Below the pieces are notes generated by a model. That model did no database searches. It saw only the letters and a program-made list of their open reading frames with translations, and was not told the origin of the DNA. The translations under genes were made by a program, and so were the position numbers. From Pseudomonadota bacterium (GTDB lineage: Bacteria > Pseudomonadota > Gammaproteobacteria > Pseudomonadales > JADFDG01), in the NCBI GenBank assembly GCA_049324475.1, contig JBMOOO010000011.1:163557-227556 (forward strand): a DNA stretch of 64,000 nt, written 5' to 3'. The first letter of the stretch is position 1. Every line of letters starts with the position of its first letter. Below, in pieces: positions 1 to 58,300 of the stretch.

Positions 1-124
1 CACGGACCGGCAGTTCGAAGACGATGCCGCCCGTCGGACCCTGATCGAGATATTCGACATGCTGGGACGTGACGATCCGCTGACGGCGCAGTACCGTCGG
101 CGCATGGCCAATGCCCTGAATTGA
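1..124 (+). CDS. 3' end of a thioredoxin-like TPR co-chaperone gene (YbbN/CnoX-like), truncated by the window edge
   Basis: Frame 2 is open from the window edge to TGA 122-124 and reads TDRQFEDDAARRTLIEIFDMLGRDDPLTAQYRRRMANALN*. The tail resembles the C-terminus of YbbN-type proteins. Only 40 codons are visible, so the family call is tentative. Confidence 0.35.
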   Translation, partial: TDRQFEDDAARRTLIEIFDMLGRDDPLTAQYRRRMANALN

Positions 125-240
125 CGCATGGCCCCCGGAACCGGGGAGACCGGTTCCGGTGTGACAGGAAAGCACTGGCCGGCGCCCTGCTGCGGGCTAT
201 ACTCCGGCTCGCCCATGGATTCGGCTGCAGGTATTTCCCC

Positions 241-1587
241 ATGCAAACCCCCCCACGATTCCATCCGATTGTGCGATCGGCCCTCTTTCTGACCATGCTT
301 GCGGTTGCCCTGCCTGCGCACGCAGACAGCGTCGATGAACTGCATGCGCTGGTCGATGCAAACGACACCGCTGCCTGGGATATGGCGCAACGCATGGAGC
401 CTGACCATGCCGGCGATCCCGAGTTTGATTTCTGGTACGGCCTGGCGGCGAAAGCTGCCGGCAACAAGCAGAAAGCGATCTTTGCCTTCGAGCGCGTTGT
501 GATCAGCCAGCCCCAGAATGGCCGTGCCAAGCTTGAGCTGGCCGATGCCCATGCCGCCTATGGCAATACCCGCGAGGCAAAACGCCTGTTCCGGGAGGTG
601 CTCGCCACGACGCCGCCGGAACCGGTGCAGCAGCGTATCCGCACCTATCTGGGCGCGATTGATGCTGCGGACAGCAAGCAGAAAACCCGGGTCAGCAGTT
701 TCATCACCCTGGGCGGTGGTTACGATTCGAACGTCAACAGTGCGCCGGCACTGGCTGACCATGAAGTCGGCCCGCTGACGTTCACGCTGACGTCGGCTTC
801 GCTGGAAACCGATGCAGGCTTCGTCGATGTGCTGGCCGGTGTCGACGTGGTGAATCCGGTCAACCAGCGCACCCTGCGTTTCCTCAATGCCTCGGTGCAG
901 CGTCGCGACAACAACGAGATTTTCTCCGGCGGCAACTTCGATTATTCACAGGCCACACTTTCCGGTGGCTGGATGCTCAGGCGGGGCGCCGCCACCTGGC
1001 GTCTGCCGCTGACGGTGCAGGGCCTGTGGGTGGAAAGTGCCAGCGGCCCCGGCGCAGTCGTCAACGATGACCGTTTCGTCTTCTCTGCCGGCGCCGAATA
1101 CAACAAGCCGCTGTCGGCGCGCACGGCCGTGACCTGGTTTGGCCAGGCCGGCACGATGCACTATCCGTCCGAAGAGGACCGCGACGCCGACATCCTGTAT
1201 GTCGGCGGTGCCTGGATCTGGCAATCCGCCTCCAGCCCGCTGCGCCTCACCACCACGGGTCGCCTCGGCACCGAGCCGGCCGACGAGGACTTCAACAGCC
1301 GTGATTACCTGGCCCTGCGCCTGAATGCGCGCTGGGCCCTGTCGGCGACCCGCTCGGTCTACGGGGCGCTCGGTGTGCAGCAGTCGATGTACCAGGGCGA
1401 TCACCCGGTACTGACCTACGAACGCGAGGACACCCTGGTGGATGCATCGCTGGGCTGGCAGTGGCAGGTGGACAGTGACTGGAACCTGAATGTCGACCTG
1501 TCGTTTGCCGACAACAACTCGACCGACAACACGCTCTACGATTTCAACCGGGCCCAGTTCAAACTGGGTTCCACCTGGCGCTTCTGA
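241..1587 (+). CDS. Slam/DUF560-type outer-membrane protein (signal peptide, TPR region, C-terminal beta-barrel; type XI secretion-like translocon)
   Basis: ORF 121..1587. ATG 241 is preferred because it gives a signal peptide (MQTPPRFHPIVRSALFLTMLAVALPAHA|DS). TPR-like helix pairs (FDFWYGLAAKAAGNKQKAIFAFERVV; AKLELADAHAAYGNTREAKRLFREVL) are followed by a beta-strand-patterned region that starts FITLGGGYDSNVNSAP and ends with the OMP-type terminus FKLGSTWRF. Confidence 0.6.
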   Translation: MQTPPRFHPIVRSALFLTMLAVALPAHADSVDELHALVDANDTAAWDMAQRMEPDHAGDPEFDFWYGLAAKAAGNKQKAIFAFERVVISQPQNGRAKLELADAHAAYGNTREAKRLFREVLATTPPEPVQQRIRTYLGAIDAADSKQKTRVSSFITLGGGYDSNVNSAPALADHEVGPLTFTLTSASLETDAGFVDVLAGVDVVNPVNQRTLRFLNASVQRRDNNEIFSGGNFDYSQATLSGGWMLRRGAATWRLPLTVQGLWVESASGPGAVVNDDRFVFSAGAEYNKPLSARTAVTWFGQAGTMHYPSEEDRDADILYVGGAWIWQSASSPLRLTTTGRLGTEPADEDFNSRDYLALRLNARWALSATRSVYGALGVQQSMYQGDHPVLTYEREDTLVDASLGWQWQVDSDWNLNVDLSFADNNSTDNTLYDFNRAQFKLGSTWRF

Positions 1588-1601
1588 GCGGAGGACGAGA
1601 C

Positions 1602-3197
1602 ATGAAACAGGAATTCAGGCTGCGCCCGCTGGCGGCGCTGATCGTGGGCAGTGTCATGTTCGCTCCGGTGTCGGCCATCGCCGCCGAGCAGGCCGGCGTG
1701 CTGCTGGTCTCTTCCGGCGGTGTGAAGGCGATCGATGGCAGCGGCAATGCCCGCGACCTCAACCGCAAGTCGGCGGTCTACAGCGGTGACAAGCTGAAGA
1801 CCGGGTCCGGCGCGCGCGCGCAGATCAAGTTCACCGACGGTGCCATCGTCGGCCTGCGTCCGAACAGCGAGCTGCGCATCGACGAATATTCCTACACCGG
1901 TGATTCCGCCTCGAAGAGCTTCATGTCGTTGCTGAAAGGCGGGTTCCGGACCGTGAGCGGTGCCATCGGCAAGGCCGGTGGCGGCGACTACAAGGTGACG
2001 ACGCCGGTGGCCACCATCGGTATCCGCGGCACCTTGTGGGATGGCGAATACGACCCGGAAACCGGGCTGGACCTGGCCGTGTGGGACGGTGGTATCTCCG
2101 CCTGCGCGGCGGCCGGTGGCGGCTGTCTGGATCTGGGCGGTGATGTCGATTACCGCTACGGCCATGTCAGCCCGGACGGAACCATGACGGGCCTGAAGGA
2201 ATCACCGATCGACGAAGACGAAGATGACGAAGGCAACAGCGGTGCGGAGTACGACACCGTTTTCGACCAGCAGGAAAGCGACATGCTGGACGAGGACATC
2301 ACGCTGTTCCTGCCGTCGGACCATCTCTCCCGTGAGCGCTATCCGCTGGCCGGCTTCGGTGTCGCCAGCGGCAGCCGCTTCCCGTCGAGCCTGCTGCACC
2401 TGGACTTCGCCCGTTTCGATTCCGCGGCGTACATGGCCAATGCGTACGGCGGCTGGGGCGCGTTCCGGGAGTCGTCGACGGGGCAGTTCCTGATTCCGGG
2501 CTCGAGGTACGAGATCTGTGACGGGGAGTGCTATGTCTACGACAGCGGTTTCTCCGGCTCGGTTCAGGAGATCACCCTGGGACAGGATCCGGACACGGAT
2601 ATCATCTGGGGCTACTGGAACTACAACGGCATGTCACTGAGTGGCAGTGACGGCGATCCGACCCTGGATGCCCTGGATAACTACGGTCTGTTCGTACTCG
2701 GCTACAACGCAACCCCGGCGGTTGTGGCGACACTGACCGGCAATGCCTCGTTCACGCTGAGCAACCTCCAGATCCTGGATTCCAGCGGTTCTCCGAGCAC
2801 CGTGTCCGGTACCGGTTCCCTGAGCATGAACATGGATACCGGCAGTGCCTATGGCGGCATGTCCTTCCAGGACACCGGTTTCGACAGCTGGACCCTGGAT
2901 TTCTCGGGTACGGTGTCGAATGACGGCCTGAGCCTGGCGATGCTGACGGATACCGCCAACGCGACCAATGCGTCCTATTACATGTCCTATGGCGGCGCGG
3001 TGACGGCGCCCGTCCAGGGCACGGTGGAAGCGTCTTTCGTCGGCCAGACCTTTGTGGAGGCCGTCATCGGCGGATTCCAGGCGGACGCTGTGGATGCCGT
3101 GGATCCGACCACCGTTATCGACAGCGTCAAAGGCGTGTTCGTCATGCCGAATGACAATCCGCCCGTCATCATCGTGACGGAACCCCCCGCCAACTGA
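1602..3197 (+). CDS. Secreted FecR-domain protein with a C-terminal TbpB-like beta-barrel-type segment (candidate Slam cargo)
   Basis: GGAGGA 1589-1594 precedes ATG 1602. The signal peptide has no Cys (MKQEFRLRPLAALIVGSVMFAPVSAIAAEQ). FecR-type domain: SAVYSGDKLKTGSGARAQIKFTDGAIVGLRPNSELRIDEY ... YKVTTPVATIGIRGTLW. The C-terminal strand pattern GNASFTLSNLQ..GSLSMNMDTGSAYGGMSF..WTLDFSGTVSNDGLSL..GTVEASFVGQTFVEAVIGGFQA resembles TbpB-type barrel domains. Confidence 0.6.
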   Translation: MKQEFRLRPLAALIVGSVMFAPVSAIAAEQAGVLLVSSGGVKAIDGSGNARDLNRKSAVYSGDKLKTGSGARAQIKFTDGAIVGLRPNSELRIDEYSYTGDSASKSFMSLLKGGFRTVSGAIGKAGGGDYKVTTPVATIGIRGTLWDGEYDPETGLDLAVWDGGISACAAAGGGCLDLGGDVDYRYGHVSPDGTMTGLKESPIDEDEDDEGNSGAEYDTVFDQQESDMLDEDITLFLPSDHLSRERYPLAGFGVASGSRFPSSLLHLDFARFDSAAYMANAYGGWGAFRESSTGQFLIPGSRYEICDGECYVYDSGFSGSVQEITLGQDPDTDIIWGYWNYNGMSLSGSDGDPTLDALDNYGLFVLGYNATPAVVATLTGNASFTLSNLQILDSSGSPSTVSGTGSLSMNMDTGSAYGGMSFQDTGFDSWTLDFSGTVSNDGLSLAMLTDTANATNASYYMSYGGAVTAPVQGTVEASFVGQTFVEAVIGGFQADAVDAVDPTTVIDSVKGVFVMPNDNPPVIIVTEPPAN

Positions 3198-3217
3198 CGG
3201 GGTGCTGGGCCTCAGCG

Positions 3218-3245
3218 ACGGCGCCTTCGGGCGCCGTTTCTGTTT
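3218..3245 (+). terminator. Rho-independent terminator after the FecR-domain gene
   Basis: Stem ACGGCGCC (3218-3225), loop TTCG, stem GGCGCCGT (3230-3237), followed by TTCTGTTT. Confidence 0.7.
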
Positions 3246-3322
3246 CCGGGGCGAACCATATCGGTGCGATCCGGGGTGCAGCGCCCGATATTGGGGCGAT
3301 TCCGGGCGATCGCATCGCCTAA

Positions 3323-3790
<468 letters not shown>

Positions 3791-3800
3791 GGAGCCCTCC

Positions 3801-5108
3801 ATGAAAAAGATTCTCGCCGCGCTGCTGGCCGCAGCGCCGGCCGGCGCTTTTGCGGCCGACGGTATTGATCCGGGCGCCAGTGCCTGGCTGCTGACCGCCA
3901 CCGGTCTGGTGCTGTTCATGACCCTGCCGGGCCTCGCGCTGTTCTACGGCGGTCTGGTCCGCAGCAAGAACGTGCTGTCCGTGCTCATGCAGTGTTTCGC
4001 CATTGCCTGCGTCGCCACGCTGCTGTGGTTCGCCGTCGGCTACACGATGGCCTTCGGTGCCGGTGGCAACGGGTTCATCGGCGGTTTCGGCAATGTGTTC
4101 TTCGCGCAGATTGCCGAAGGTACGCTGACGCCGACGCTGTCCGCATCCGTGCTGGTGCCGGAATCGCTGTTCGCGCTCTTCCAGATGACCTTCGCCATCA
4201 TCACGCCGGCGCTGATCGTCGGCGCCTATGCCGAGCGCATGCGCTTCGGCGCCATGCTGCTGTTCAGCGCACTGTGGCTGCTGGCGGTGTACGCGCCGAT
4301 CACGCACTGGGTCTGGCACAGCGACGGCTGGCTGTTCAAGCAGGGGCTGCTGGATTTTGCCGGCGGCACGGTGGTTCACATCACGGCCGGTGTGGCGGCG
4401 CTGGTGTGCGCGCTGGTGCTCGGTCCGCGCAAGGGCTTCCCGCAGCAGCCGATGCCGCCGCACAACCTCACCATGGCCATGACCGGCGCCGGCATGCTGT
4501 GGGTGGGCTGGTTCGGTTTCAACGCCGGCTCCGCGCTGGCGGCCGACGGCAACGCCGCGATGGCGCTGGCGTCCACGCAGATTTCTGCGGCGGCGGGCGC
4601 TTTTGCCTGGATGTGCATCGAGTGGATCAGGCACGGCAAGCCGAGCGCGCTGGGCATCATCACCGGCATGGTGGCCGGCCTGGGCACCATCACGCCGGCG
4701 TCCGGCTACGTCGGCCCGGCCGGTGCGCTGGTGATCGGCCTGTCGGCCGGTGTGGTCTGCTTCTTTGCCACCATGGCGATCAAGCGCAAGCTGAAGATCG
4801 ACGATTCCCTCGACGTGTTCCCGGTACACGGCGTCGGCGGCATCCTCGGCACGTTCATGGCGGGCATTTTTGCGTCCGGCGCGCTGGGCATTTTCAGCGG
4901 CCAGGGCTATGCCGAAGGCGTGACCATGGGCAGCCAGCTCACGGTCCAGCTGACCGGCATTGCCGCCACCGGCCTGTACACGGCGGTGGTGACCTGGGTG
5001 CTGCTCAAGGCGGTTGGCCTGGTGACGGCCCTGCGGGTGACCCCGGACGAGGAAACCGAAGGTCTGGACCTCGTGCTGCACGATGAGCGCGGCTACGACA
5101 TCCGTTGA
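3801..5108 (+). CDS. amtB: Ammonium transporter AmtB
   Basis: 435 aa with a signal-like N-terminus and about 11 TM segments. Amt motifs: FYGGLVRSKNVLS, DFAGGTVVHITAGVAAL, WFGFNAGSA, VHGVGGILGT. AGGAG lies upstream of the ATG. Confidence 0.95.
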   Translation: MKKILAALLAAAPAGAFAADGIDPGASAWLLTATGLVLFMTLPGLALFYGGLVRSKNVLSVLMQCFAIACVATLLWFAVGYTMAFGAGGNGFIGGFGNVFFAQIAEGTLTPTLSASVLVPESLFALFQMTFAIITPALIVGAYAERMRFGAMLLFSALWLLAVYAPITHWVWHSDGWLFKQGLLDFAGGTVVHITAGVAALVCALVLGPRKGFPQQPMPPHNLTMAMTGAGMLWVGWFGFNAGSALAADGNAAMALASTQISAAAGAFAWMCIEWIRHGKPSALGIITGMVAGLGTITPASGYVGPAGALVIGLSAGVVCFFATMAIKRKLKIDDSLDVFPVHGVGGILGTFMAGIFASGALGIFSGQGYAEGVTMGSQLTVQLTGIAATGLYTAVVTWVLLKAVGLVTALRVTPDEETEGLDLVLHDERGYDIR

Positions 5109-5150
5109 GATCGCCGTGACATCCGGCAAGGCCGGAAGCGTGAACCGGAA

Positions 5151-5176
5151 CGGGGCCTGCGGGCCCCGCTTTCGTT
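5151..5176 (+). terminator. Rho-independent terminator after amtB
   Basis: CGGGGCC-TGC-GGGCCCCG hairpin (5151-5168) followed by CTTTCGTT. Confidence 0.6.
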
Positions 5177-5325
5177 GGCCGGCTCATTGACCGGATGTGC
5201 AGGGGGGGTGAACGAAAAGGCTATTGCCAAGGGGAGGGGGCGTCAGTAGGTTTGACCCTCGCTTCGAACACCCGTTTGAACGGATTCACCCCCACGATTC
5301 ATCCACCCGCGAGGAGACAGCACAC

Positions 5326-5715
5326 ATGGCCAAGTTCATGACCGACGCCTGGTTCACCGAAGTAGAGAAACTGATCGCCGCCGCCGGCGACCTGCAGCCG
5401 CCGGCTGCCCTGGCCGATCTCGTGCTGAACGTCACCGTGACCGGCACTTCCGAAGGTGACAAGCCGATGGCGATCGTTGCCGGCAAGTTCCAGAAAGGCC
5501 ACCAGTCGGGCGCCCCGACCCACCTGATCCTGCCGGTCGAGCTGGCCCAGCGCATCTTCATCGACAACGACCAGTCTGCCGGCATGCAGGGCTTCATGAG
5601 CGGCCAGATCAAGATCGAAGGCGACATGAGCCGCCTGATGGTCATGAACACCGTTCAGCCGTCCGCTCCGCAGAAAGACCTGCAGGGCAAGATCAAGGCG
5701 ATGACCACCGCCTGA
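5326..5715 (+). CDS. SCP2 (sterol/lipid carrier) domain protein
   Basis: GAGGAG 5311-5316 precedes ATG 5326. The 129-aa product reads MAKFMTDAWFTEVEKL...LNVTVTG... and ends with the SCP2-type FMSGQIKIEGDMSRLMVM. The longer ORF from 5224 lacks an RBS. Confidence 0.7.
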   Translation: MAKFMTDAWFTEVEKLIAAAGDLQPPAALADLVLNVTVTGTSEGDKPMAIVAGKFQKGHQSGAPTHLILPVELAQRIFIDNDQSAGMQGFMSGQIKIEGDMSRLMVMNTVQPSAPQKDLQGKIKAMTTA

Positions 5716-5732
5716 TTTGCACATGTGCAATG

Positions 5733-5760
5733 AAAAGGGCCCTGCGGGGCCCTTTTTGTT
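5733..5760. terminator. Bidirectional hairpin terminator between convergent genes
   Basis: AAAAGGGCCC-TGCG-GGGCCCTTTTTG is a perfect GC stem flanked by an A-run and a T-run. It lies between the stop at 5715 (+) and the stop at 5770 (-). Confidence 0.8.
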
Positions 5761-5769
5761 TTCCGGCGC

Positions 5770-6834
5770 TTACGAAGCGTTTTGCCGGCCTGCCTGCCGC
5801 ATTGGCAGCTGCAGTACCGGTGCTTCTTCCAGCGTGTTGCCGGCCCGCCGGTAACGGCCGGGGCTGGTGCCCGTCCAGGCGCTGAAGGCCTTGCTGAAGC
5901 TGGCCTGGTCGCCATAGCCGACCTGTTCCGCGATTTCCTCGATCGGCAGGCTGGAACCGCGCAGCAGCCGGCGTGCGAATTCCAGCCGCACGCAATTGCG
6001 GATGTCGGTGAAGCTCTGGCCGGTTTCCTGCAGATGCCGGCGCAGCGAGCGGGCACTCAGACCCATGCGCTCGGCCACAGACTCCAGCGTGCAGTCACGC
6101 CCCGGATTCGACAGCACGCACCGGCGCAGCCGCAGCACGATTTCCGCTTCATCGGTGATGCCGGTTTCATGTGCGCCCAGTTTGGCGATGAGTTCCGGCG
6201 CGCGGTTTTCCTCCTGCCAGGCCGGGCGGCTGTGGTAGGTCAGCGTCGCCCGGCAGGCGGCCTGTCCGAACACCACCTGCCCGCGGTCCAGGCCGTGGAA
6301 GCCGCGGGTCGTGCGTGGCGCCGCGCAATCGAACTCGAGCCGGAGATCGCGTGTGGCCAGCGAGGCGATCGACAGAATGCTGCCCAGGTACATGCCGGTG
6401 ACGAAGTGACGGGTCGTTCCCAGGTCCCAGGTGTCTTCCATCTGCAGGTGCTGGCGCGGGCCGTCCTCGGTCAGCCGGATGTCCAGCAGTGGCAACCGGA
6501 CCCGGATGACGGTGACCACCATGCCGACCAGTTCACGCAGACGTTCGCGCCGCAGGATGCTGAAGCCGAGCAGCCCGTGTGCCGACAGATCGATGGTTCG
6601 TCCGAATTCGAAGCCCAGCGACTCGCGGGGCACCAGCCGGCAGGCCTGCTCGATCAGCCGCTGGATCTGCGCCACCGACAGGTAGACCTCGGGTTCGCGC
6701 AGGGCGGAAATGGGAACGCCCGTACCATCCAGCAGGACTTCCGGCGAAATGCCCTCACGCTGCATGTAGCGTGCAAGCACGGCGGCATAGTGGGCCGAGA
6801 TCATCGGGAAATTGCGTTCGTAGGCGTGTTTCAT
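5770..6834 (-). CDS. AraC-family transcriptional regulator (N-terminal effector domain plus C-terminal HTH)
   Basis: C-terminal AraC HTH: LSARSLRRHLQETGQSFTDIRNCVRLEFARRLLRGSSLPIEEIAEQVGYGDQASFSKAFSAWTGTSPGRYRR. It is divergent from the 7165 operon across a 330-nt, less GC-rich spacer. Confidence 0.85.
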   Translation of the reverse strand: MKHAYERNFPMISAHYAAVLARYMQREGISPEVLLDGTGVPISALREPEVYLSVAQIQRLIEQACRLVPRESLGFEFGRTIDLSAHGLLGFSILRRERLRELVGMVVTVIRVRLPLLDIRLTEDGPRQHLQMEDTWDLGTTRHFVTGMYLGSILSIASLATRDLRLEFDCAAPRTTRGFHGLDRGQVVFGQAACRATLTYHSRPAWQEENRAPELIAKLGAHETGITDEAEIVLRLRRCVLSNPGRDCTLESVAERMGLSARSLRRHLQETGQSFTDIRNCVRLEFARRLLRGSSLPIEEIAEQVGYGDQASFSKAFSAWTGTSPGRYRRAGNTLEEAPVLQLPMRQAGRQNAS

Positions 6835-7164
6835 CGTCTTTTTCTTGTACTTGGGAAGAACACGTCCGTGAAATCTAGACAGCCTTGCTGCGGCGTCAAC
6901 GCTATTCGTGTAGCGATCTGCAAACGTGATGCGGACTCGTCGGTCACCGGTTTTATCCGGCCATGCGCATGAATTCCGGGTGAGAAAAAAGTCTCAGTGA
7001 TGGCGGAAATTCCTGCGCCTAAAGCATTGCTGTGCCGGAACTGACAAAAAACTGGCCGCGGTTCGACTACGGGCCGGACACCCCGGTTTTGATAATCCGC
7101 CGCCGTCCGTACAGGACATTGCACGTGTCATCCCCGCAAAAAAACAACAACGTGGGAGCCTGCC

Positions 7165-7950
7165 ATGACCGAACCACTGACCTGCCGCCATCATCATCTG
7201 GCCGAGGTGTCCGTGCGCGAGATCCGGCGCATGTACGACATCTTCACGCAGTACTACGACAATGCGCCGCTCGACGTCTTTCTGCGCGACCTCAGCCGCA
7301 AGAGCGGCGTTTTCCTGGTGCGCCGGCGCCGTGACGGTGAAATTGTCGGATTCTCGACCGTGCACCGCTTCGACATGCAGGTCGACGGCCGTCCGGCCAT
7401 CGGTGTTTTCTCCGGCGATACGCTGATCGAGCGGGCCTACTGGGGGTCGCGGGCGCTGCAGCTGGCATTCACCCGGTATGTGTTCCGGATCCGTCTGTGC
7501 AATCCGCTCACGCCGTTGTACTGGTGCCTGATCTCCAAGGGCTACAAGACCTTCCTGCTGCTGGCCAACAACTTTCCGCGCTATTACCCGCACCCGGAAG
7601 GCCGCCATCCGGAGCTGGGTTCCGTGGTGCGCCAGTATTGCGGGCAGCTGTTTCCGGGGAATCTCGACGCTGCCGGCATGCTGCTGTATTTCGGCGAGAA
7701 CGCGCAGCGGTTGCGTGAGGAAACGGCCCCGATCACCGAAGCCACCCGCCGGCGCTACGCCAAGGTGGCCTTTTTCGAGCAGTGCAATCCGACCTGGCAA
7801 TCGGGTACCGAGCTGCCCTGCATCGGCATGCTGGGCTGGACGGATTTCGCGATGTTTGCGCGCCGTGACCTGCTGAAACTGTTGCGGCGCCGGCGCGAGG
7901 CGCATCCGGAAATGCAGCTGGCGGCTGCCGACGGCGACATGGCGGACTGA
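7165..7950 (+). CDS. Hypothetical protein, possibly a GNAT-fold acyltransferase (first gene of the GH3 operon)
   Basis: GGGAG 7153-7157 precedes ATG 7165. 261 aa. The segment GEIVGFSTVHRFDMQVDGRPAIGVFSGDTLIERAYWGSRALQLAF looks like a GNAT beta4-alpha3 core. No signal peptide. The fold call is tentative. Confidence 0.4.
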   Translation: MTEPLTCRHHHLAEVSVREIRRMYDIFTQYYDNAPLDVFLRDLSRKSGVFLVRRRRDGEIVGFSTVHRFDMQVDGRPAIGVFSGDTLIERAYWGSRALQLAFTRYVFRIRLCNPLTPLYWCLISKGYKTFLLLANNFPRYYPHPEGRHPELGSVVRQYCGQLFPGNLDAAGMLLYFGENAQRLREETAPITEATRRRYAKVAFFEQCNPTWQSGTELPCIGMLGWTDFAMFARRDLLKLLRRRREAHPEMQLAAADGDMAD

Positions 7951-7953
7951 GCC

Positions 7954-9603
7954 GTGGCTGTGCAGGCTGGCAATGTCCGGGCCGGGCACTTTGCCCTGTC
8001 GCTGGCGGTTGCACCGGCGTATCGGCAGTTTGCGGCCGGTCTTGGCGATCCCGAGTCCGTGCAGCGGCAGCTGCTGGCGCAGTTGCTGAAGGCCGTGGCA
8101 CGCGCACACGGCAACCGCTTCCGCGTCGATGCCGGCTGGCGCTGGGAGGATTTCACGCGTCACGTTCCGGTGACGACCTGGCAGGACTGGCAGCTGGCCG
8201 TGGACGCGCAACTGCATGAGAAGCGTCGGCTGCTGGTGGATTCCCCCGTTGTGCGCTACCAGCCCACCAGCGGTTCCACCTCGGCGATCAAGCTGGTTCC
8301 GTACACGAAGCGGTTTCTCGGCGAGCTCGACGCAGCCATCGCACCATGGCTGGGTGATCTGTACCGGCAGTATCCGGCGATCCGGGGCGGCCGGCACTAC
8401 TGGTCGGTGTCATGGTTGCCGAACACGTTGCGTGAGCGTTTCCGTGCCGACCTGAACGATGACATGCAACTACTGGCTGCCGGCAAGCGCTGGCTCGCTG
8501 CACGCACACAATCGGTACCGCAGGAAACGTCGCTGGCCGATACCTCGGATGGTTCGCTGTTCGCCACCCTGGCATTTCTCGCAGCCGATGAACGTCTCGG
8601 CATGCTGTCGGTATGGAGCCCGACCTTCGGGCTGGCGCTGCTGGAAAGGCTGGCCGTGTGGCGCGATCCGCTGGCGGTGTGTCTGACAACCGGGGAGTGG
8701 CCGCGCGGTTTCGGCGAGTTCGGCGATCTGGCCTGCCCCCGCTCGCCGCGTGCGGCATCGCTGCTGCGGGGCTGGAACGGCCAGCAGGATCCGGAATTCT
8801 TTCGTGCCCTGTGGCCGGCGCTCGCGCTGGTCAGTGCCTGGGATACCGCGGCCGCGGCACCCTGGGCCGACGCATTGCGTGCGCGTTTGCCGCACACGGC
8901 ATTCCAGGGCAAGGGTTTGTGGGCCACGGAAGGTGTGGTCACCATCCCGTTCCGCAACGAGCACGTGCTGGCCTACCGCAGCCATGTGTATGAATTCGAG
9001 GATGCCGACACCGGCCGCATCTGCGCTCCCTGGGAGCTGCAGGCCGGGCAGTCGGTCATCCCCTTGCTGTCCACCGGCAGTGGCCTGCTGCGCTACCGCA
9101 TGAACGACGTGCTGGAAGTCGGCAGGAAAATGGGCGAGGTGCCCACGCTGCGCTTCCTCGGGCGCAATGACGGCGTCGATCTGGCCGGCGAGAAGATCAG
9201 CACGGCGGTTGCGCAGAAAGTGCTGGCAACCCTGGGTGCGCAACACGGCCTGCGTCCGCTGACGCTGCTGGCAGCACACGATGCCGGCAACGGCCGGCCG
9301 GGCTACCTGTTGCTGGCGGAAGCAGCCGACGCACGTGCGCGGATCCCGGAAACCCGGGTGGCTGCAGAACTGGAGCAGGCACTGCTGGCGCACTTCCACT
9401 ACCGGCTGGCCCGCGATCTCGGTCAGCTGGCACCGGCGCGGGTCGTGGTACGGGATGACATGCAGCTGCAGTACGTACGCATGCGGCAGGCAGCCGGCAT
9501 GATCGAGGGCAACGTCAAGGTCGAAGCGCTTACCGCATGGCGCCGGCCACTGCCGCCGGCACTGGCGTTGCCGGCGGAAACGGCCTTGCAGGTGTGTGCA
9601 TGA
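7954..9603 (+). CDS. GH3-family adenylate-forming acyl-acid amido synthetase
   Basis: GTG 7954 lies 3 nt after the upstream stop. GH3 motifs are present in order: PTSGSTSAIKLVPYT, GLWATEGVVTIP, GLLRYRMNDVLEVGRKMGEVPTLRFLGR. 549 aa. The exact start is uncertain. Confidence 0.75.
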   Translation: MAVQAGNVRAGHFALSLAVAPAYRQFAAGLGDPESVQRQLLAQLLKAVARAHGNRFRVDAGWRWEDFTRHVPVTTWQDWQLAVDAQLHEKRRLLVDSPVVRYQPTSGSTSAIKLVPYTKRFLGELDAAIAPWLGDLYRQYPAIRGGRHYWSVSWLPNTLRERFRADLNDDMQLLAAGKRWLAARTQSVPQETSLADTSDGSLFATLAFLAADERLGMLSVWSPTFGLALLERLAVWRDPLAVCLTTGEWPRGFGEFGDLACPRSPRAASLLRGWNGQQDPEFFRALWPALALVSAWDTAAAAPWADALRARLPHTAFQGKGLWATEGVVTIPFRNEHVLAYRSHVYEFEDADTGRICAPWELQAGQSVIPLLSTGSGLLRYRMNDVLEVGRKMGEVPTLRFLGRNDGVDLAGEKISTAVAQKVLATLGAQHGLRPLTLLAAHDAGNGRPGYLLLAEAADARARIPETRVAAELEQALLAHFHYRLARDLGQLAPARVVVRDDMQLQYVRMRQAAGMIEGNVKVEALTAWRRPLPPALALPAETALQVCA

Positions 9604-54207: not shown

Positions 54208-54567
54208 TTACTGGGTCTGTTCCTGCAGACTGCGGAAGTACTGCACCTCCCGGCGCAGTACATCACGGTCCAGCGGTTGCAGGACCTGATTGAGAATCGA
54301 CGTGGTCGGCGATTTCTTCTCGAGTTTCACTTCCTTGTCTTTCCACGGTACGACGTTCAGTACCGTGGGGGCCTCCTGCGAGCCGACGACGTTGGTCACC
54401 AGCTCGCTTTCGGGTTTGGCATCGGCCGGCTGCTTTTTTGCCGCCGCGTTGGCGGCATTGGCGAAATTGCCGGCAGCGGCAGCCGGCTTCGCCGGGTCGG
54501 CAGCGAAAACCGGTGAGACGGAGAGAAGGGCGGCAACCAGTGTTGCCATGACGAGACGATGCTTCAT
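54208..54567 (-). CDS. Small secreted protein of unknown function
   Basis: 119 aa. Signal peptide MKHRLVMATLVAALLSVSPVFA|AD, an Ala/Lys/Pro-rich stretch, then VLNVVPWKDKEVKLEKK. The start overlaps the upstream stop (ATGA at 54564-54567). Confidence 0.55.
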   Translation of the reverse strand: MKHRLVMATLVAALLSVSPVFAADPAKPAAAAGNFANAANAAAKKQPADAKPESELVTNVVGSQEAPTVLNVVPWKDKEVKLEKKSPTTSILNQVLQPLDRDVLRREVQYFRSLQEQTQ

Positions 54568-55352
54568 GACGACTGACCTGTTGCAGGAGTGGCCGCAGGT
54601 GCGGCGGCCGGCGCGGATTGTTCGGCCGGAGCGGCGGGCGGAGTGGCCGGCGCCGGTGCGGCAATGCCCAGGCGGTTGCGCAGGTCGCCGATCCAGTTGC
54701 CTACCGCCTGGTCCGGTTTGCGTTGCAGGGCCTGATAGCGCTCATAGTGTTTCAGCGCGAGGTTGAGGTCCTGCAGGTACAAGTCAGCCAGCACGCCAAG
54801 ATTGAAGTGGGCCTTGGCGTAGTTGCCGTCGATGGCCAGCGCCTTCTCGTAGGCGGCGCGCGCTTCCTTGAATTTGCCCTGCTCGCGCAGGACGATGCCG
54901 CGCATGTTCCAGGCGAACGGGTTTTTCGGGTTCACCTTGAGTGTCTGGTCGATGCTGTCCAGGGCGTCTTCCCATTTTTCCTGGCGTATGTAGATCAGCG
55001 CCTGGTTGACCAGCGGGCCGGACAACACCGGGTGCTGGGCGGAAATGGCCTGGAATCCGACCAGGGCGTCGTTCAGCTTGCCGGCTTTCATGGCCTGCAC
55101 GGCGGCGAAGTATTCGCCGATCGCCTGCTGGGCTGCGGCCTGCGCCTGGCTCGATGCCGTGACGGTGGTCTGGTGTACCGAATCGCTGGCAGCAACGGCG
55201 GGTGCCGTCGGTTGCTGACGTACCGAGCGGACGACATTGACGTTGTCGACTTCCGGCTTGGGCTTCGGTGTCGATGAGCAGGCCGCCAGCGTGGCTGCCA
55301 GCAACAGCCACGCGGCACGCCAGGGACGGAAATCAGTAGATGACATCGACAT
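54564..55352 (-). CDS. TPR-repeat lipoprotein
   Basis: Start ATG 55352 (or 55346). Lipobox WLLLAATLAAC|SS. At least four TPR units (for example PKNPFAWNMRGIVLREQGKFKEARAAYEKALAIDGNYAKAHFNLGVLADLY). Confidence 0.7.
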   Translation of the reverse strand: MSMSSTDFRPWRAAWLLLAATLAACSSTPKPKPEVDNVNVVRSVRQQPTAPAVAASDSVHQTTVTASSQAQAAAQQAIGEYFAAVQAMKAGKLNDALVGFQAISAQHPVLSGPLVNQALIYIRQEKWEDALDSIDQTLKVNPKNPFAWNMRGIVLREQGKFKEARAAYEKALAIDGNYAKAHFNLGVLADLYLQDLNLALKHYERYQALQRKPDQAVGNWIGDLRNRLGIAAPAPATPPAAPAEQSAPAAAPAATPATGQSS

Positions 55353-58300
55353 ATTCTTCCGTCTGTTCTTTCTTGGCGAAGCGGCCCGGTTGCAGGACGG
55401 ACAGGGCCTTGAAGCTCTTCTTGACCCAGTCATCGTAGATGTCCTGTTTCACCAGGTCGGTGTTCTGCGTGTACAGGGTGATGGCCTGGTCTTCGAACGG
55501 CAGCGCCTGCTCTTCCAGCAGCAGGTCGTACTGCTCCAGTTCCAGTTCGTCGAGACCGCGCGGGCGCTCGGAAGACATCAGGTCGGCAGCCAGGATCCGG
55601 TACACCTCGGCGGTGCGGAACTGGGCCGCAGATGCGAATTCAGCCACGCCGAGTTTGGCGGTTGTCGCATAGGAATCGAGCGCGGCCTGCATCAGCCGGC
55701 GTTTTTCGGCCAGCGAGGTCTTCAGCGGCGCTTTCAGCTTGTACTCGGTGAAACGCTGGAAGACCGGCTCGGCCACGGTGAACGATGCAAAGGCGCCGAG
55801 ATAGTTGGTGCGCGGTGTGGCTGCCGGGCCGGCATTCTTCGCGCCGGAGGCCAGCGCTGCCAGCAGGGTGTCGCGGGAGCGGAGGTCGCCACGTTTCTCG
55901 GCGATCTTCAGCAGCCGGTACTGCGCTTCCATGCGGGCTTCCAGCGGTTGCGGGTTCTCCGCGATGTACTTGTTGTAGAGCCGGATCACACCGTCCTCGT
56001 TGCCGGTCTTCTCCGTGAACTCGGCGGCCTGCCACAAGGCATTGCGGGCAAGCTCCGGGTCGGTCTTGAGATTGGTGTCGTGGATGGTTTCCATCTCGCG
56101 GGCGGCGCCGGCGAAGTTGCCGGTCTTCTCGTAGGCAACGGCCAGCTTGTCCGGGATGGTGTCGCCCAGGGTGTTTTTCGGGTAGCGGACGCGGAACTGT
56201 TCCAGCACCGGAATGGCGGCGTTCCACTGTTCCTTTTTCAGGTAAATGGTGGCCGCGTCGAACTCCGCGTTGGCCCGGATCCCGGCATCGGGAACCACCG
56301 TGCCCACGCGCATGTATTCCTTCGCACCTTCCAGTTCCTTGCCTTCGGCGATCAGTTTCTCGCCCTGTTTGTAGATGCTGGCGGCCAGGCGCTCGTTGTA
56401 GGTCTTGCGATCAGCCGGTGTCAGGTCGTTGAAGGCCAGCACCTTGGTGAAGGCAAACTCGGCGACCTTGTGGCGGCCGAGGTCGAATTCGCCGTTGGCA
56501 ATGGTCTGCCAGCCGTACTTCTGCAGGGCAGGCGGTGGCGGTGGATTGAGTGATACCAGCAGGCCGGCAGTGCTGATGGCACCGGCCACATCCTTCTTGG
56601 CGAGCTGGTCCTCGACGATGTTCTGCAGCACGCCAGGTGCCTTTTCATGCCCCTGGAAGGTGCGCGCGAACTTCAGGCCGGCATCGATCTTGCGGGTCAG
56701 CAACTGCTTGTATTCGTTGTCCCGCTTCGGATCGCCTTTCATCTCGTCACCGTAGGCCTGGTAGGCCACCAGGCCGAAGTAGGCTGCTTCGGCAGCCTTG
56801 TCGTAGCCCGGATATTCGTACGCGGTACGTTCGAATTCGCGGACCGACTTCACGAACTCGCGACCGGAGAACAGGGCCTCGGCATACAGATGGTTGATGG
56901 TGGCGGCACCCGGATCCTTCGGATCGGTTTCCAGCAGCTGTTTGTACCAGCCGGCGGCCACCAGGAATTCGGCCGTGTCGTTACCCTTCTGGGCGGTGGC
57001 GTGATGGTGCTTGGCCAGATCCAGCAGGTGCGACTTCAGCAGCGGCAGGTACTCGGTGCGCTGCTTCTCGTGCGAGCCCCAGTATTTGCTGTTGATGCCA
57101 TAGGCCTTGACGAAACGTTCCTTGGCCGGCAGTACCTGGGTCGGGAAGCCACCGTCCTGCAGGGCCTTGATGGCGCTGGAGGAGAATTCCGGTGCCAGAT
57201 CGCTGTCGGGATACAGCAGCACGAAGGTTTCGAAAGTGTCGGCGGCATCCACGAAGCGTTCCTGCTTGACGTAGACCTCGCCAAGGGCGCGGTAGATCTT
57301 GTGCTCGTAGCCGCGCCGGCCGTTCTTCCTGAACCAGGCCGTCACCGACTTGGCGCCGTCCAGATTGTTGAACGACATGGAAGCCACGCGGAACGTATCG
57401 TCGAGCAGACGCTGGTTGCGGTCCGCTTCCTTGCCTTCGGCCTGTACCTTGTCCAGCAGATCGATCAGCGCGAAGAAATCGACCAGTGCTTTTTCGTATT
57501 CGGAAACCTTGTAGTAGCCCCAGCCACGCTTGTAGATCGACTGTTCGTAGAAGGTGGTGGCACTGCCGGCCCGGATGACTTCGCTGTAGGCGCCGATCGA
57601 GAGATCGTATTCACCCTCGGAGAAATAGCTCTCACCCAGGCGGAACTGCGCTTCCAGATAGAACGTGCTGTTGGGGTACTGCCTGCCCAGCTCCTTGAGG
57701 GTGGCGACAGACTCTTCATGCTTGCCGGCAATGTCGTAGGCCTTGGCCAGCAGGTAGAAAGCTTCGGCTTTTTCGGCAGGGTCCTGACTGTTCTTGATGA
57801 CGGTCTGGTACAGCAGGATGGCCGTCTCGTAGTTGGCGGCGAGATCGCTGCCTTCCAGCTCCGGCACGATGCCGCCGGCCAGGTCCAGCATGCGGTAGCG
57901 CTCTTCCTGGGTCTTCGCGTCCTGTGCGCCCTGCATGAAGCTCTTGAACAGCATGGCGTCGATTTCGCGGTCGAGTTTGACCTCTTCCGCTTCCGACAGC
58001 TGGGCGGGGACGACCGGTGCTTCCTCGAGGGAAACGCCTTCGCCTTCCTTCTCGGTCGAGGCGGCCATCGCAAGGTCGGCCATCCGGCGCAGCGACTCAA
58101 CACGCTTTTCCGGATCGTTGAACAGTTGCACTGCCTGCTTGTAGTTCACCAGGGCGCCTTCGATCGACGCTTCGTCGATCGAACCCTCCGTGACTTCGAT
58201 CTCCACGTTTTCCAGATCGGCCAGCGTCTGCGATGCGTAGCGGCTTTCCTTGGCCTGCGGGGCAGCGGCCGGTGCCGGTTCGGCCTTGCGTGAAGTCTTC

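Follow-up and report, generated by a model that had tools for sequence, protein, structure and literature searches.

A Slam-like outer-membrane protein and an adjacent FecR-headed, TbpB-like protein form a probable type 11 secretion pair of a widespread environmental class

Two adjacent genes of an uncultured environmental proteobacterium probably constitute a type 11 (Slam-type) secretion pair, as judged from sequence profiles and predicted folds, with gene 1 encoding the translocon and gene 2 its cognate, non-lipidated substrate. They lie at the start of the stretch of DNA analyzed here (the window: 64,000 nucleotides, positions 163,557 to 227,556 of contig JBMOOO010000011.1, assembly GCA_049324475.1), and had been singled out by an earlier sequence-only reading of the same DNA. 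Rather than being peculiar to the window, the pair represents a widespread, uncharacterized class of environmental beta-/gammaproteobacterial type 11 secretion system (T11SS) loci, which corrects that reading in one respect. In another, the FecR-like N-terminal domain of gene 2, previously regarded as exported cargo, may be a periplasmic anchor.

Gene 1 belongs to the Slam superfamily by profile homology

The product of gene 1 displays the architecture that had been ascribed to it, with a predicted signal peptide, periplasmic tetratricopeptide repeats (TPRs) and a C-terminal barrel region terminating in LGSTWRF, the last residue being aromatic (Table 1). The TPR matches are above cut-off and cover residues 104-171 of the 488-residue open reading frame (ORF), equivalent to residues 64-131 of the 448-residue protein. 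A phmmer-type search with gene 1 recovered 35 close relatives and about 50 more distant ones, the latter sharing 22-32% identity over approximately 90% of the length and mostly annotated with PF04575 (DUF560, SlipAM). The matches to the PF04575-annotated proteins range from E 1e-36 to 1e-12, and one of these proteins is named 'surface lipoprotein assembly modifier' by NCBI.

Profile-to-profile comparison was exploited to assess this relationship further. Using hhalign, the gene 1 family (alignment A3) aligned to 31 distant homologs (alignment A4) with a probability of 100% and E 1.2e-72 over 415 columns, spanning from the TPR region to the terminal Phe, and 30 of these 31 homologs match PF04575 in Pfam. 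On the strength of this alignment, and of the PF04575 domain in nearly all of the aligned homologs, we assign gene 1 to the Slam/T11SS outer-membrane protein (OMP) superfamily as a divergent member just beyond Pfam's model, rather than to the generic TPR-containing OMPs. Searched against PDB sequences, the gene 1 profile retrieved TPR proteins and OmpX only, without reaching a Slam structure.

Gene 2 couples a FecR-like domain to a predicted TbpB-like lobe

Gene 2 encodes a Sec-type signal peptide, a FecR-like domain, an acidic middle region (residues ~199-246) and a C-terminal lobe, an order of parts already recognized in the sequence-only reading. Considering that the signal contains no Cys, the protein cannot be lipidated, and a regular-expression search found a lipobox-like motif to be absent in 60 of 63 Slam-adjacent relatives as well.

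The link to known Slam substrates is provided by the C-terminal lobe. An alignment of 19 copies of the C-terminal module (A2, covering the last ~280-285 residues) was supplied to AlphaFold2, which yielded an all-beta model with a predicted local distance difference test score (pLDDT) of 91.9 and a predicted template modeling score of 0.88. In this model a beta handle, or pedestal, at residues ~249-347 precedes an eight-stranded barrel at residues ~362-517 (pLDDT 93-98; strand count from the DSSP string only). Comparison with the PDB using Foldseek returned TbpB, LbpB, HphA, hemophilin or NHBA for each of the first 28 matches, all of them known T11SS cargo or barrels thereof. The best of these is the C-lobe of TbpB (E 1.8e-5, probability 1.00, template modeling (TM) score 0.53 on target), while the NHBA barrel gives a TM score of 0.76; the highest-ranking structures include HphA (8gmm and 8glo) as well as hemophilin (6om5), and fHbp appears further down the list. 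Sequence profiles point in the same direction. An exhaustive search of 1.84 billion representatives with the module profile found 127 clusters, 84 of them with a FecR-like N-domain and most of the others fragment-like. Pfam detected FecR in 45 of 54 module-profile relatives and TbpB_B_D (PF01298) in 13 of the 54, with a best E of 1e-7. Iterated barrel profiles moreover link the window-type barrel to a type positioned just under the TbpB_B_D cut-off of Pfam, and the barrel at locus L024 scores 23.8 bits for PF01298 against a cut-off of 26. From predicted fold and profile evidence combined, we assign the C-terminal segment of gene 2 to the TbpB-type barrels.

At the opposite end of the protein, Pfam detects FecR (PF04773), the sole Pfam domain of gene 2, at residues 63-164 with 46.1 bits (E 7e-12; cut-off 24), starting some 30 residues past the cleavable signal peptide, and the AlphaFold2 model of residues 1-206 (alignment A5) has a pLDDT of 90. 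Foldseek relates this N-domain to the periplasmic domain of PupR (6ovk, E 1.5e-5) and to a Bacteroidetes anti-sigma factor (4m0n; BDI_1681), and its first ~62 residues to 5ix9 (TM score 0.78, root mean square deviation 0.8 Å over 62 columns), an N-terminal domain that anchors MpIBP, the ice-binding adhesin of Marinomonas. The 5ix9 domain is also the only significant match of the family profile among PDB sequences (E 8e-5), and has served as template for the LapA retention module, proposed to be periplasmic with a flexible segment threading a TolC-like pore (bioRxiv 10.1101/198937). The NCBIfam model retention_LapA (NF033682) is matched at E <= 0.01 by 29 of 30 family N-domains, and by the window's own gene 2 at E 4.6e-5, in all cases below cut-off (23.6-25.4 bits against 50). 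Matches to two Leptospira models of NCBIfam, surface adhesin Lsa33 (E 9e-13) and LipL45 (E 2e-7), are partial and far below cut-off. A LapG-type TAAG site following the N-domain was considered and rejected, as only a non-conserved AAAG is present, located between two Cys residues. More generally, the sequence and neighborhood of gene 2 contain no type 1 secretion signal or RTX repeats, no LapG di-alanine site and no LapEBC or LapDG genes.

The N-domain is the best conserved part of gene 2, with a mean pairwise identity across the family of 62%, followed by the barrel (39%), the handle (29%) and the linker (28%). Each of 12 full-length homologs retains the same four Cys residues: C168 and C175 (codons 2103-2105 and 2124-2126) form a close pair in the FecR-like domain, and C306 and C310 (codons 2517-2519 and 2529-2531) a CxxxC pair in the handle. 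This pattern suggests two disulfides and a non-cytoplasmic location of the protein.

The homologs occur as forms of ~500-550 and ~820 residues, the last ~280 residues being duplicated in the longer ones. High plasticity of the cargo is apparent in a number of proteins and loci (P0090, P0094, P0095, P0101, P0131, P0136, P0180, P0217, L084:6283-9527, L021, L022, L034 and L039). The handle and barrel may be duplicated into two lobes as in TbpB, or repeated as 5-8 matched stretches in proteins of ~1,800-2,100 residues; elsewhere one OMP gene is followed by a pair of cargo genes, or OMP-cargo pairs are arranged in tandem.

The pair recurs in many environmental genomes

Homologs of gene 1 and gene 2 share short contigs, and the same synteny is present on three longer contigs, among them one with a two-lobed cargo and one where a single OMP gene precedes two cargo genes. 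Divergence is faster in the cargo than in the translocon, with for example 34-64% versus 54-69% identity on shared contigs. Close relatives of gene 2 are known from metagenome assemblies only; a genome scan of the GTDB species representatives revealed no close full-length ortholog, the best match having 47% identity over residues 2-168.

To follow up the proposal of the sequence-only reading that FecR genes be surveyed beside DUF560 homologs, GTDB was scanned with one genome per species. More than 571 loci with relatives of the N-domain were found, and the best 80 were examined. In 61 of the 80 a Slam-like ORF is positioned directly upstream of the FecR-domain ORF on the same strand (A4 profile E 1e-60 to 1e-164), and 7 of the 19 other loci are cut by contig ends. 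The PF04575 threshold of Pfam was passed by 8 of 10 FecR-adjacent OMPs. When only complete ORFs whose upstream region could be assessed are counted, the Slam-adjacent FecR ORFs have the barrel in 46 cases and lack it in 9, whereas those that are not Slam-adjacent have it in a single case and lack it in 13, the latter group being short ORFs. The loci are distributed over Rhodocyclaceae, Polaromonas, Methylophilaceae, Gallionella, Nitrosomonadales, Thiohalomonas, Acidiferrobacterales, Moraxellaceae, Marinobacterium, Oceanospirillum and Leeia, among other taxa.

Two additional features of these loci deserve mention. A gene for a TPR protein with a glycosyltransferase family 41 (GT41) domain (PF13844, E 1e-66 to 1e-102) follows the Slam and FecR-cargo pair in approximately 22 of the 80 loci (for example L015:11386-13539, L016:4982-7237, L004:6814-9339, L076:12320-14443, L041:12982-15132 and L056:11564-13744), hinting that the cargo may be glycosylated. 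In loci of the Rhodocyclaceae type, a short FecR-only gene of ~240-270 residues is found just upstream of the Slam gene (L004:2758-3483, L008:328-1140 and L017:6025-6807), besides the long FecR-plus-barrel gene downstream.

Secretion model and fate of the FecR-like head

As read from the sequence, both proteins carry signals for export by Sec, and the gene 2 signal is of a type cut by signal peptidase I, here after AIA, without any lipid being added. The later steps may be envisaged by analogy with Slam1 and TbpB. The substrate would be kept unfolded in the periplasm until its C-terminal TbpB-like barrel is recognized by the translocon; handle and barrel lobe would then be threaded C-terminus first through the gene 1 barrel, and fold at the cell surface. 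C-terminal recognition and translocation of an unfolded substrate, C-terminus first, are proposed in the Slam model (PMC9090332), and soluble signal-peptidase-I cargo is established for T11SS (PMC8406197). The FecR-like N-domain would occupy the position that the lipid anchor or the ligand-binding 'effector' has in known cargo, and could accordingly be exported last as the working end, or serve as a periplasmic anchor.

Export of the whole mature protein across the outer membrane, to be released or to remain loosely associated with the surface, is a reading we consider quite possible, though short of probable; the FecR-like domain would then represent the extracellular working end, for example an adhesin or ligand-binding head. 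Such an outcome agrees with the characterized T11SS cargo of the signal-peptidase-I type, including hemophilin, HphA and HrpC, all of which are secreted whole (PMC8406197), as well as with the published cargo scheme of a variable N-terminal effector, a pedestal and a C-terminal barrel (PMC12282271). The sub-threshold matches of the N-domain to Lsa33 and LipL45 also favor a surface role. However, those relatives of the N-domain with solved structures (PupR, the anti-sigma factor and the MpIBP/LapA-type domain) are all periplasmic, the domain is far more conserved than the C-terminal lobe, which is unusual for an exposed effector, and no linked ligand or receptor gene, such as one for a TonB-dependent receptor, is present.

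The same structural relatives support a more tentative proposal, to which we give clearly less than even chances, namely that only the handle and barrel lobe are displayed at the surface. Here the N-domain would fold in the periplasm with the linker threaded through the Slam barrel, holding the protein without lipid as LapA is held. The likeness to the LapA retention module in fold and profile speaks for it, as does the greater conservation of the N-domain relative to handle and barrel, which fits a protected interior domain combined with an exposed, fast-evolving exterior. So does the proposed C-terminus-first passage of unfolded Slam substrates. An invariant Cys pair in the N-domain, followed by the acidic linker of ~48 residues, is further compatible with retention; this disulfide argument is however weak, since the handle too has an invariant Cys pair and yet must be exported. 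On the other hand, the retention_LapA scores remain at about half of the NCBI cut-off (~25 against 50 bits), neither a LapG cleavage motif nor nearby LapD, LapG or LapEBC genes were found, those T11SS cargo proteins known to lack a lipid are released in their entirety (PMC8406197), and a stalled substrate would block its own translocon. If, as is conceivable but rather unlikely, the N-domain acts as a periplasmic stopper, the Slam translocon would be turned into a permanent anchor, with the substrate spanning the outer membrane via its own secretion pore. As FecR/PupR-type domains are periplasmic signal receivers, a stopper protein of this kind could relay surface events into the periplasm. 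Such a topology, if true, would be undescribed for type 11 secretion, and would either be related to the way type 1 systems retain LapA or have converged on it.

Whether the two genes form a secretion pair at all has to be weighed against several points. Secretion is here inferred from homology, predicted fold and gene neighborhood. In the Pfam scan, gene 1 has no PF04575 match at E <= 1, and its matches to TPR_Slam (E 0.03) and to the generic barrel family OMP_b-brl are weak, the latter being sub-threshold; PF04575 is also missing from the precomputed Pfam annotation of all 35 close relatives (P0001-P0035). Gene 2 similarly has no PF01298 or PF08794 match at E <= 1 in the Pfam scan, and the A2 module profile retrieved no relative among PDB sequences, only a chance match to prothrombin (E 1.2). 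Moreover, the survey started solely from the FecR side, and the association of barrel presence with Slam adjacency (Fisher p 1.5e-7) is indicative only, overstating independence because the surveyed loci are phylogenetically related. As the profile- and fold-level tests are positive, we do not count the missing direct Pfam and NCBIfam matches as a refutation: the DUF560 and TbpB-type assignments of the sequence-only reading fail as direct domain matches, but hold at the level of profile homology for gene 1 and of structure prediction for gene 2.

It is very improbable that gene 2 is instead a periplasmic FecR-type sensor or partner (of the FecR-CHASE2 or anti-sigma type) beside an unrelated TPR-containing OMP or porin, their adjacency reflecting co-regulation or chance: PF04773 is admittedly best known from periplasmic sensing, 14 surveyed FecR-domain ORFs have no Slam neighbor and gene 1 fails PF04575 directly, but gene 2 lacks an anti-sigma N-domain, a transmembrane segment and a FecR_C/STN-like C-domain in the Pfam scan and architecture, its neighborhood contains no gene for a sigma factor, a transducer or CHASE2, only Slam cargo stands at the top of the PDB list for the C-terminal lobe, the Slam-less FecR ORFs are short and in 13 of 14 cases without barrel, and the homology of gene 1 to DUF560 is decisive at the profile level. 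The classical FecR anti-sigma factor was ruled out for gene 2 by architecture and by a neighborhood without sigma factor and TonB-dependent transducer.

Gene boundaries and conserved neighborhood

As stated in the sequence-only reading, the two genes are on the same strand, separated by 14 nt and closed by a single terminator (Table 1), whose hairpin stem (3217-3238) has 9 pairs, 7 of them G-C. The gene 1 ORF as listed spans 121-1587 and begins at TTG; we place the start at the ATG at 241, because the upstream thioredoxin-TPR gene ends at ~123, because a database protein 100% identical to gene 1 (P0001) has 448 residues and because of the gene call in L001. Gene 2 is identical to database protein P0086. 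Both ORFs have many homologs (E down to 0), and are hence real genes rather than chance ORFs.

Table 1. Coordinates of the gene pair and its parts within the window
Feature	Position	Strand	Basis
Gene 1, divergent Slam/type 11 secretion OMP (448 residues plus stop)	241-1587	+	Profile homology to PF04575-positive proteins
Gene 1 predicted signal peptide, MQTPPRFHPIVRSALFLTMLAVALPAHA, cleavage before DS	241-324	+	Charged n-region, hydrophobic core and AHA cleavage motif, judged by reading the translation
Gene 1 periplasmic TPR repeats	430-633	+	Pfam TPR_19 (E 7e-7), TPR_2, TPR_14
Gene 1 C-terminal beta-barrel region, DUF560-like	700-1584	+	hhalign alignment, GGYDSN motif to terminal Phe
Intergenic gap (14 nt)	1588-1601	+	Ribosome-binding site GGAGGA at 1590-1595, read from the sequence
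Gene 2, FecR-like/TbpB-like fusion, non-lipidated, cargo candidate (531 residues plus stop)	1602-3197	+	Domain evidence per part
Gene 2 predicted Sec signal peptide, signal peptidase I type, no Cys, MKQEFRLRPLAALIVGSVMFAPVSAIA, cleavage before AEQ	1602-1682	+	Read by eye
FecR-like all-beta N-domain, residues 28-198, invariant C168 and C175	1683-2195	+	Pfam, AlphaFold2, Foldseek
Acidic, poorly conserved linker, residues 199-246 (~48 residues)	2196-2339	+	Sequence; gaps and length variation in alignment A1
Handle/pedestal beta domain, residues 247-360, invariant C306 and C310	2340-2681	+	AlphaFold2 strands, model residues 5-103
TbpB-like beta-barrel, residues 361-517, putative T11SS targeting domain	2682-3152	+	AlphaFold2 strands, model residues 118-273
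Intrinsic terminator ending the two-gene unit, hairpin GACGGCGCC-TTCG-GGCGCCGTT, then T-rich tail	3217-3248	+	

Upstream of the pair are genes for a DUF6726 protein, two unknown proteins and the thioredoxin-TPR protein, and downstream glnK, amtB, an SCP2 gene and an AraC-type gene. In line with the sequence-only reading, the neighboring genes include neither a TonB-dependent receptor nor any sigma or anti-sigma gene. The gene order purC, DUF6726, two unknown genes, thioredoxin-TPR, Slam-like, FecR cargo, glnK, amtB and SCP2-like recurs at L082 and L084, and the AraC-type and GH3 genes past the SCP2-like gene are shared by L084 and the window (1-9603); at L083, a contig of 7.5 kb, only the upstream half of the neighborhood is visible. 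The pair thus sits in a conserved core-genome neighborhood (L082, L083, L084 and window 1-9603), and not in an island.

Downstream of the terminator, TGGCCCGGAACATGCA at 3349-3364 fits the -24/-12 pattern of sigma-54, with GG and GC ten bases apart, and is situated upstream of glnK (3452-3790) and amtB (3801-5108). A sigma-54 site is expected for nitrogen-regulated glnK-amtB operons. In the rest of the window, no GT41 gene and no second Slam or FecR copy were found. An ORF at 54567-55448 on the reverse strand weakly resembles the Slam comparison profile in its TPR part (E 1e-5), and is most likely another TPR protein.

FecR domains in the type 11 secretion literature

The sequence-only reading had held that a FecR fusion is not a described class of cargo, and we reach the same conclusion: within the searchable T11SS, Slam and DUF560 literature, subscription-only papers aside, no FecR fusion is described as cargo, and the FecR-headed class is in this sense undescribed. 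Approximately ten cargo architectures are given in the T11SS literature, none of them with FecR (PMC12282271), and the term 'FecR' is absent from the main text of the 2017, 2021 and 2025 T11SS papers. Supplementary file 2 of PMC12282271 contains PF04773 only in a table of co-occurrence with cluster 1 T11SS OMPs, beside sigma-70 domains; the row reads 201, 48 and 0.239, where we take the latter two as control count and ratio. Two preprints of 2023 regard FecR in the vicinity of T11SS genes as an iron regulator. Some of the FecR co-occurrences that have been counted as 'regulatory elements' around T11SS genes may however be cargo.

All experimentally verified T11SS cargo derives from the animal-associated 'cluster 1' systems (PMC12282271), and the nine other T11SS clusters, found mostly in water and soil bacteria, had no characterized member in 2021 (PMC8406197). 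The present analysis supplies a concrete candidate cargo class for environmental T11SS, in which a linker joins a non-lipidated FecR-like head to a TbpB-like lobe. This class is represented in many beta-/gammaproteobacterial families and often has a TPR-GT41 gene behind it. Should the head be a periplasmic anchor, proteins would be attached to the Gram-negative surface in a novel manner, and FecR domains would be connected with the retention modules that giant adhesins carry.

Comparison with known systems

The window pair may be compared to Slam1 and Slam2 of Neisseria (T11SS cluster 1A), which handle TbpB, LbpB, fHbp and HpuA. In both, an OMP with a signal peptide, TPRs in the periplasm and a barrel of the DUF560 type is encoded beside a Sec-exported substrate, and the predicted handle and barrel lobe of gene 2 resembles the C-lobe of TbpB, with some relatives being two-lobed like TbpB. 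In contrast to the neisserial cargo, gene 2 has no lipobox Cys, and a FecR-like beta domain replaces the lipid anchor and ligand-binding lobe. The pair also has no linked TonB-dependent receptor, falls below the Pfam thresholds of PF04575 and PF01298, and stems from an uncultured environmental proteobacterium of 65% G+C.

The soluble T11SS cargo, represented by hemophilin/Hpl, HphA and HrpC with OMPs of the HrpB type (subcluster 1B), likewise combines a signal-peptidase-I signal, a single handle and barrel unit and an adjacent OMP. Hemophilin, HphA and HrpC are however heme binders of only ~230-260 residues, with a small N-terminal clamp and TonB or heme-oxygenase neighborhoods, whereas the lobe of gene 2 is preceded by a FecR-like domain of ~170 residues and the acidic linker, and no metal-uptake genes are nearby.

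With the FecR/PupR anti-sigma regulators gene 2 has PF04773 in common, and the best structural matches of its N-domain, 6ovk and 4m0n, are of this kind. It differs from them in lacking a cytoplasmic anti-sigma domain, a transmembrane helix, an STN-like FecR_C domain and a neighboring extracytoplasmic function (ECF) sigma factor or TonB-dependent transducer, and its FecR-like domain comes directly after a cleavable signal peptide. An arrangement with the FecR domain straight behind the signal peptide of a non-regulatory envelope protein is also found in LipL45 and Lsa33 of Leptospira, but these are spirochete lipoproteins that have neither a Slam partner nor a barrel of the TbpB type.

Finally, the retention module of LapA-type RTX adhesins (N-domain of MpIBP region I, 5ix9) parallels the first ~65 residues of the N-domain in both sequence and fold, and is likewise followed by a flexible segment. 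The LapA-type proteins use type 1 secretion, while gene 2 would take the route of Sec and Slam; it scores below the NCBIfam cut-off, and has none of the RTX signal, LapG site and LapDG genes that accompany the adhesins.

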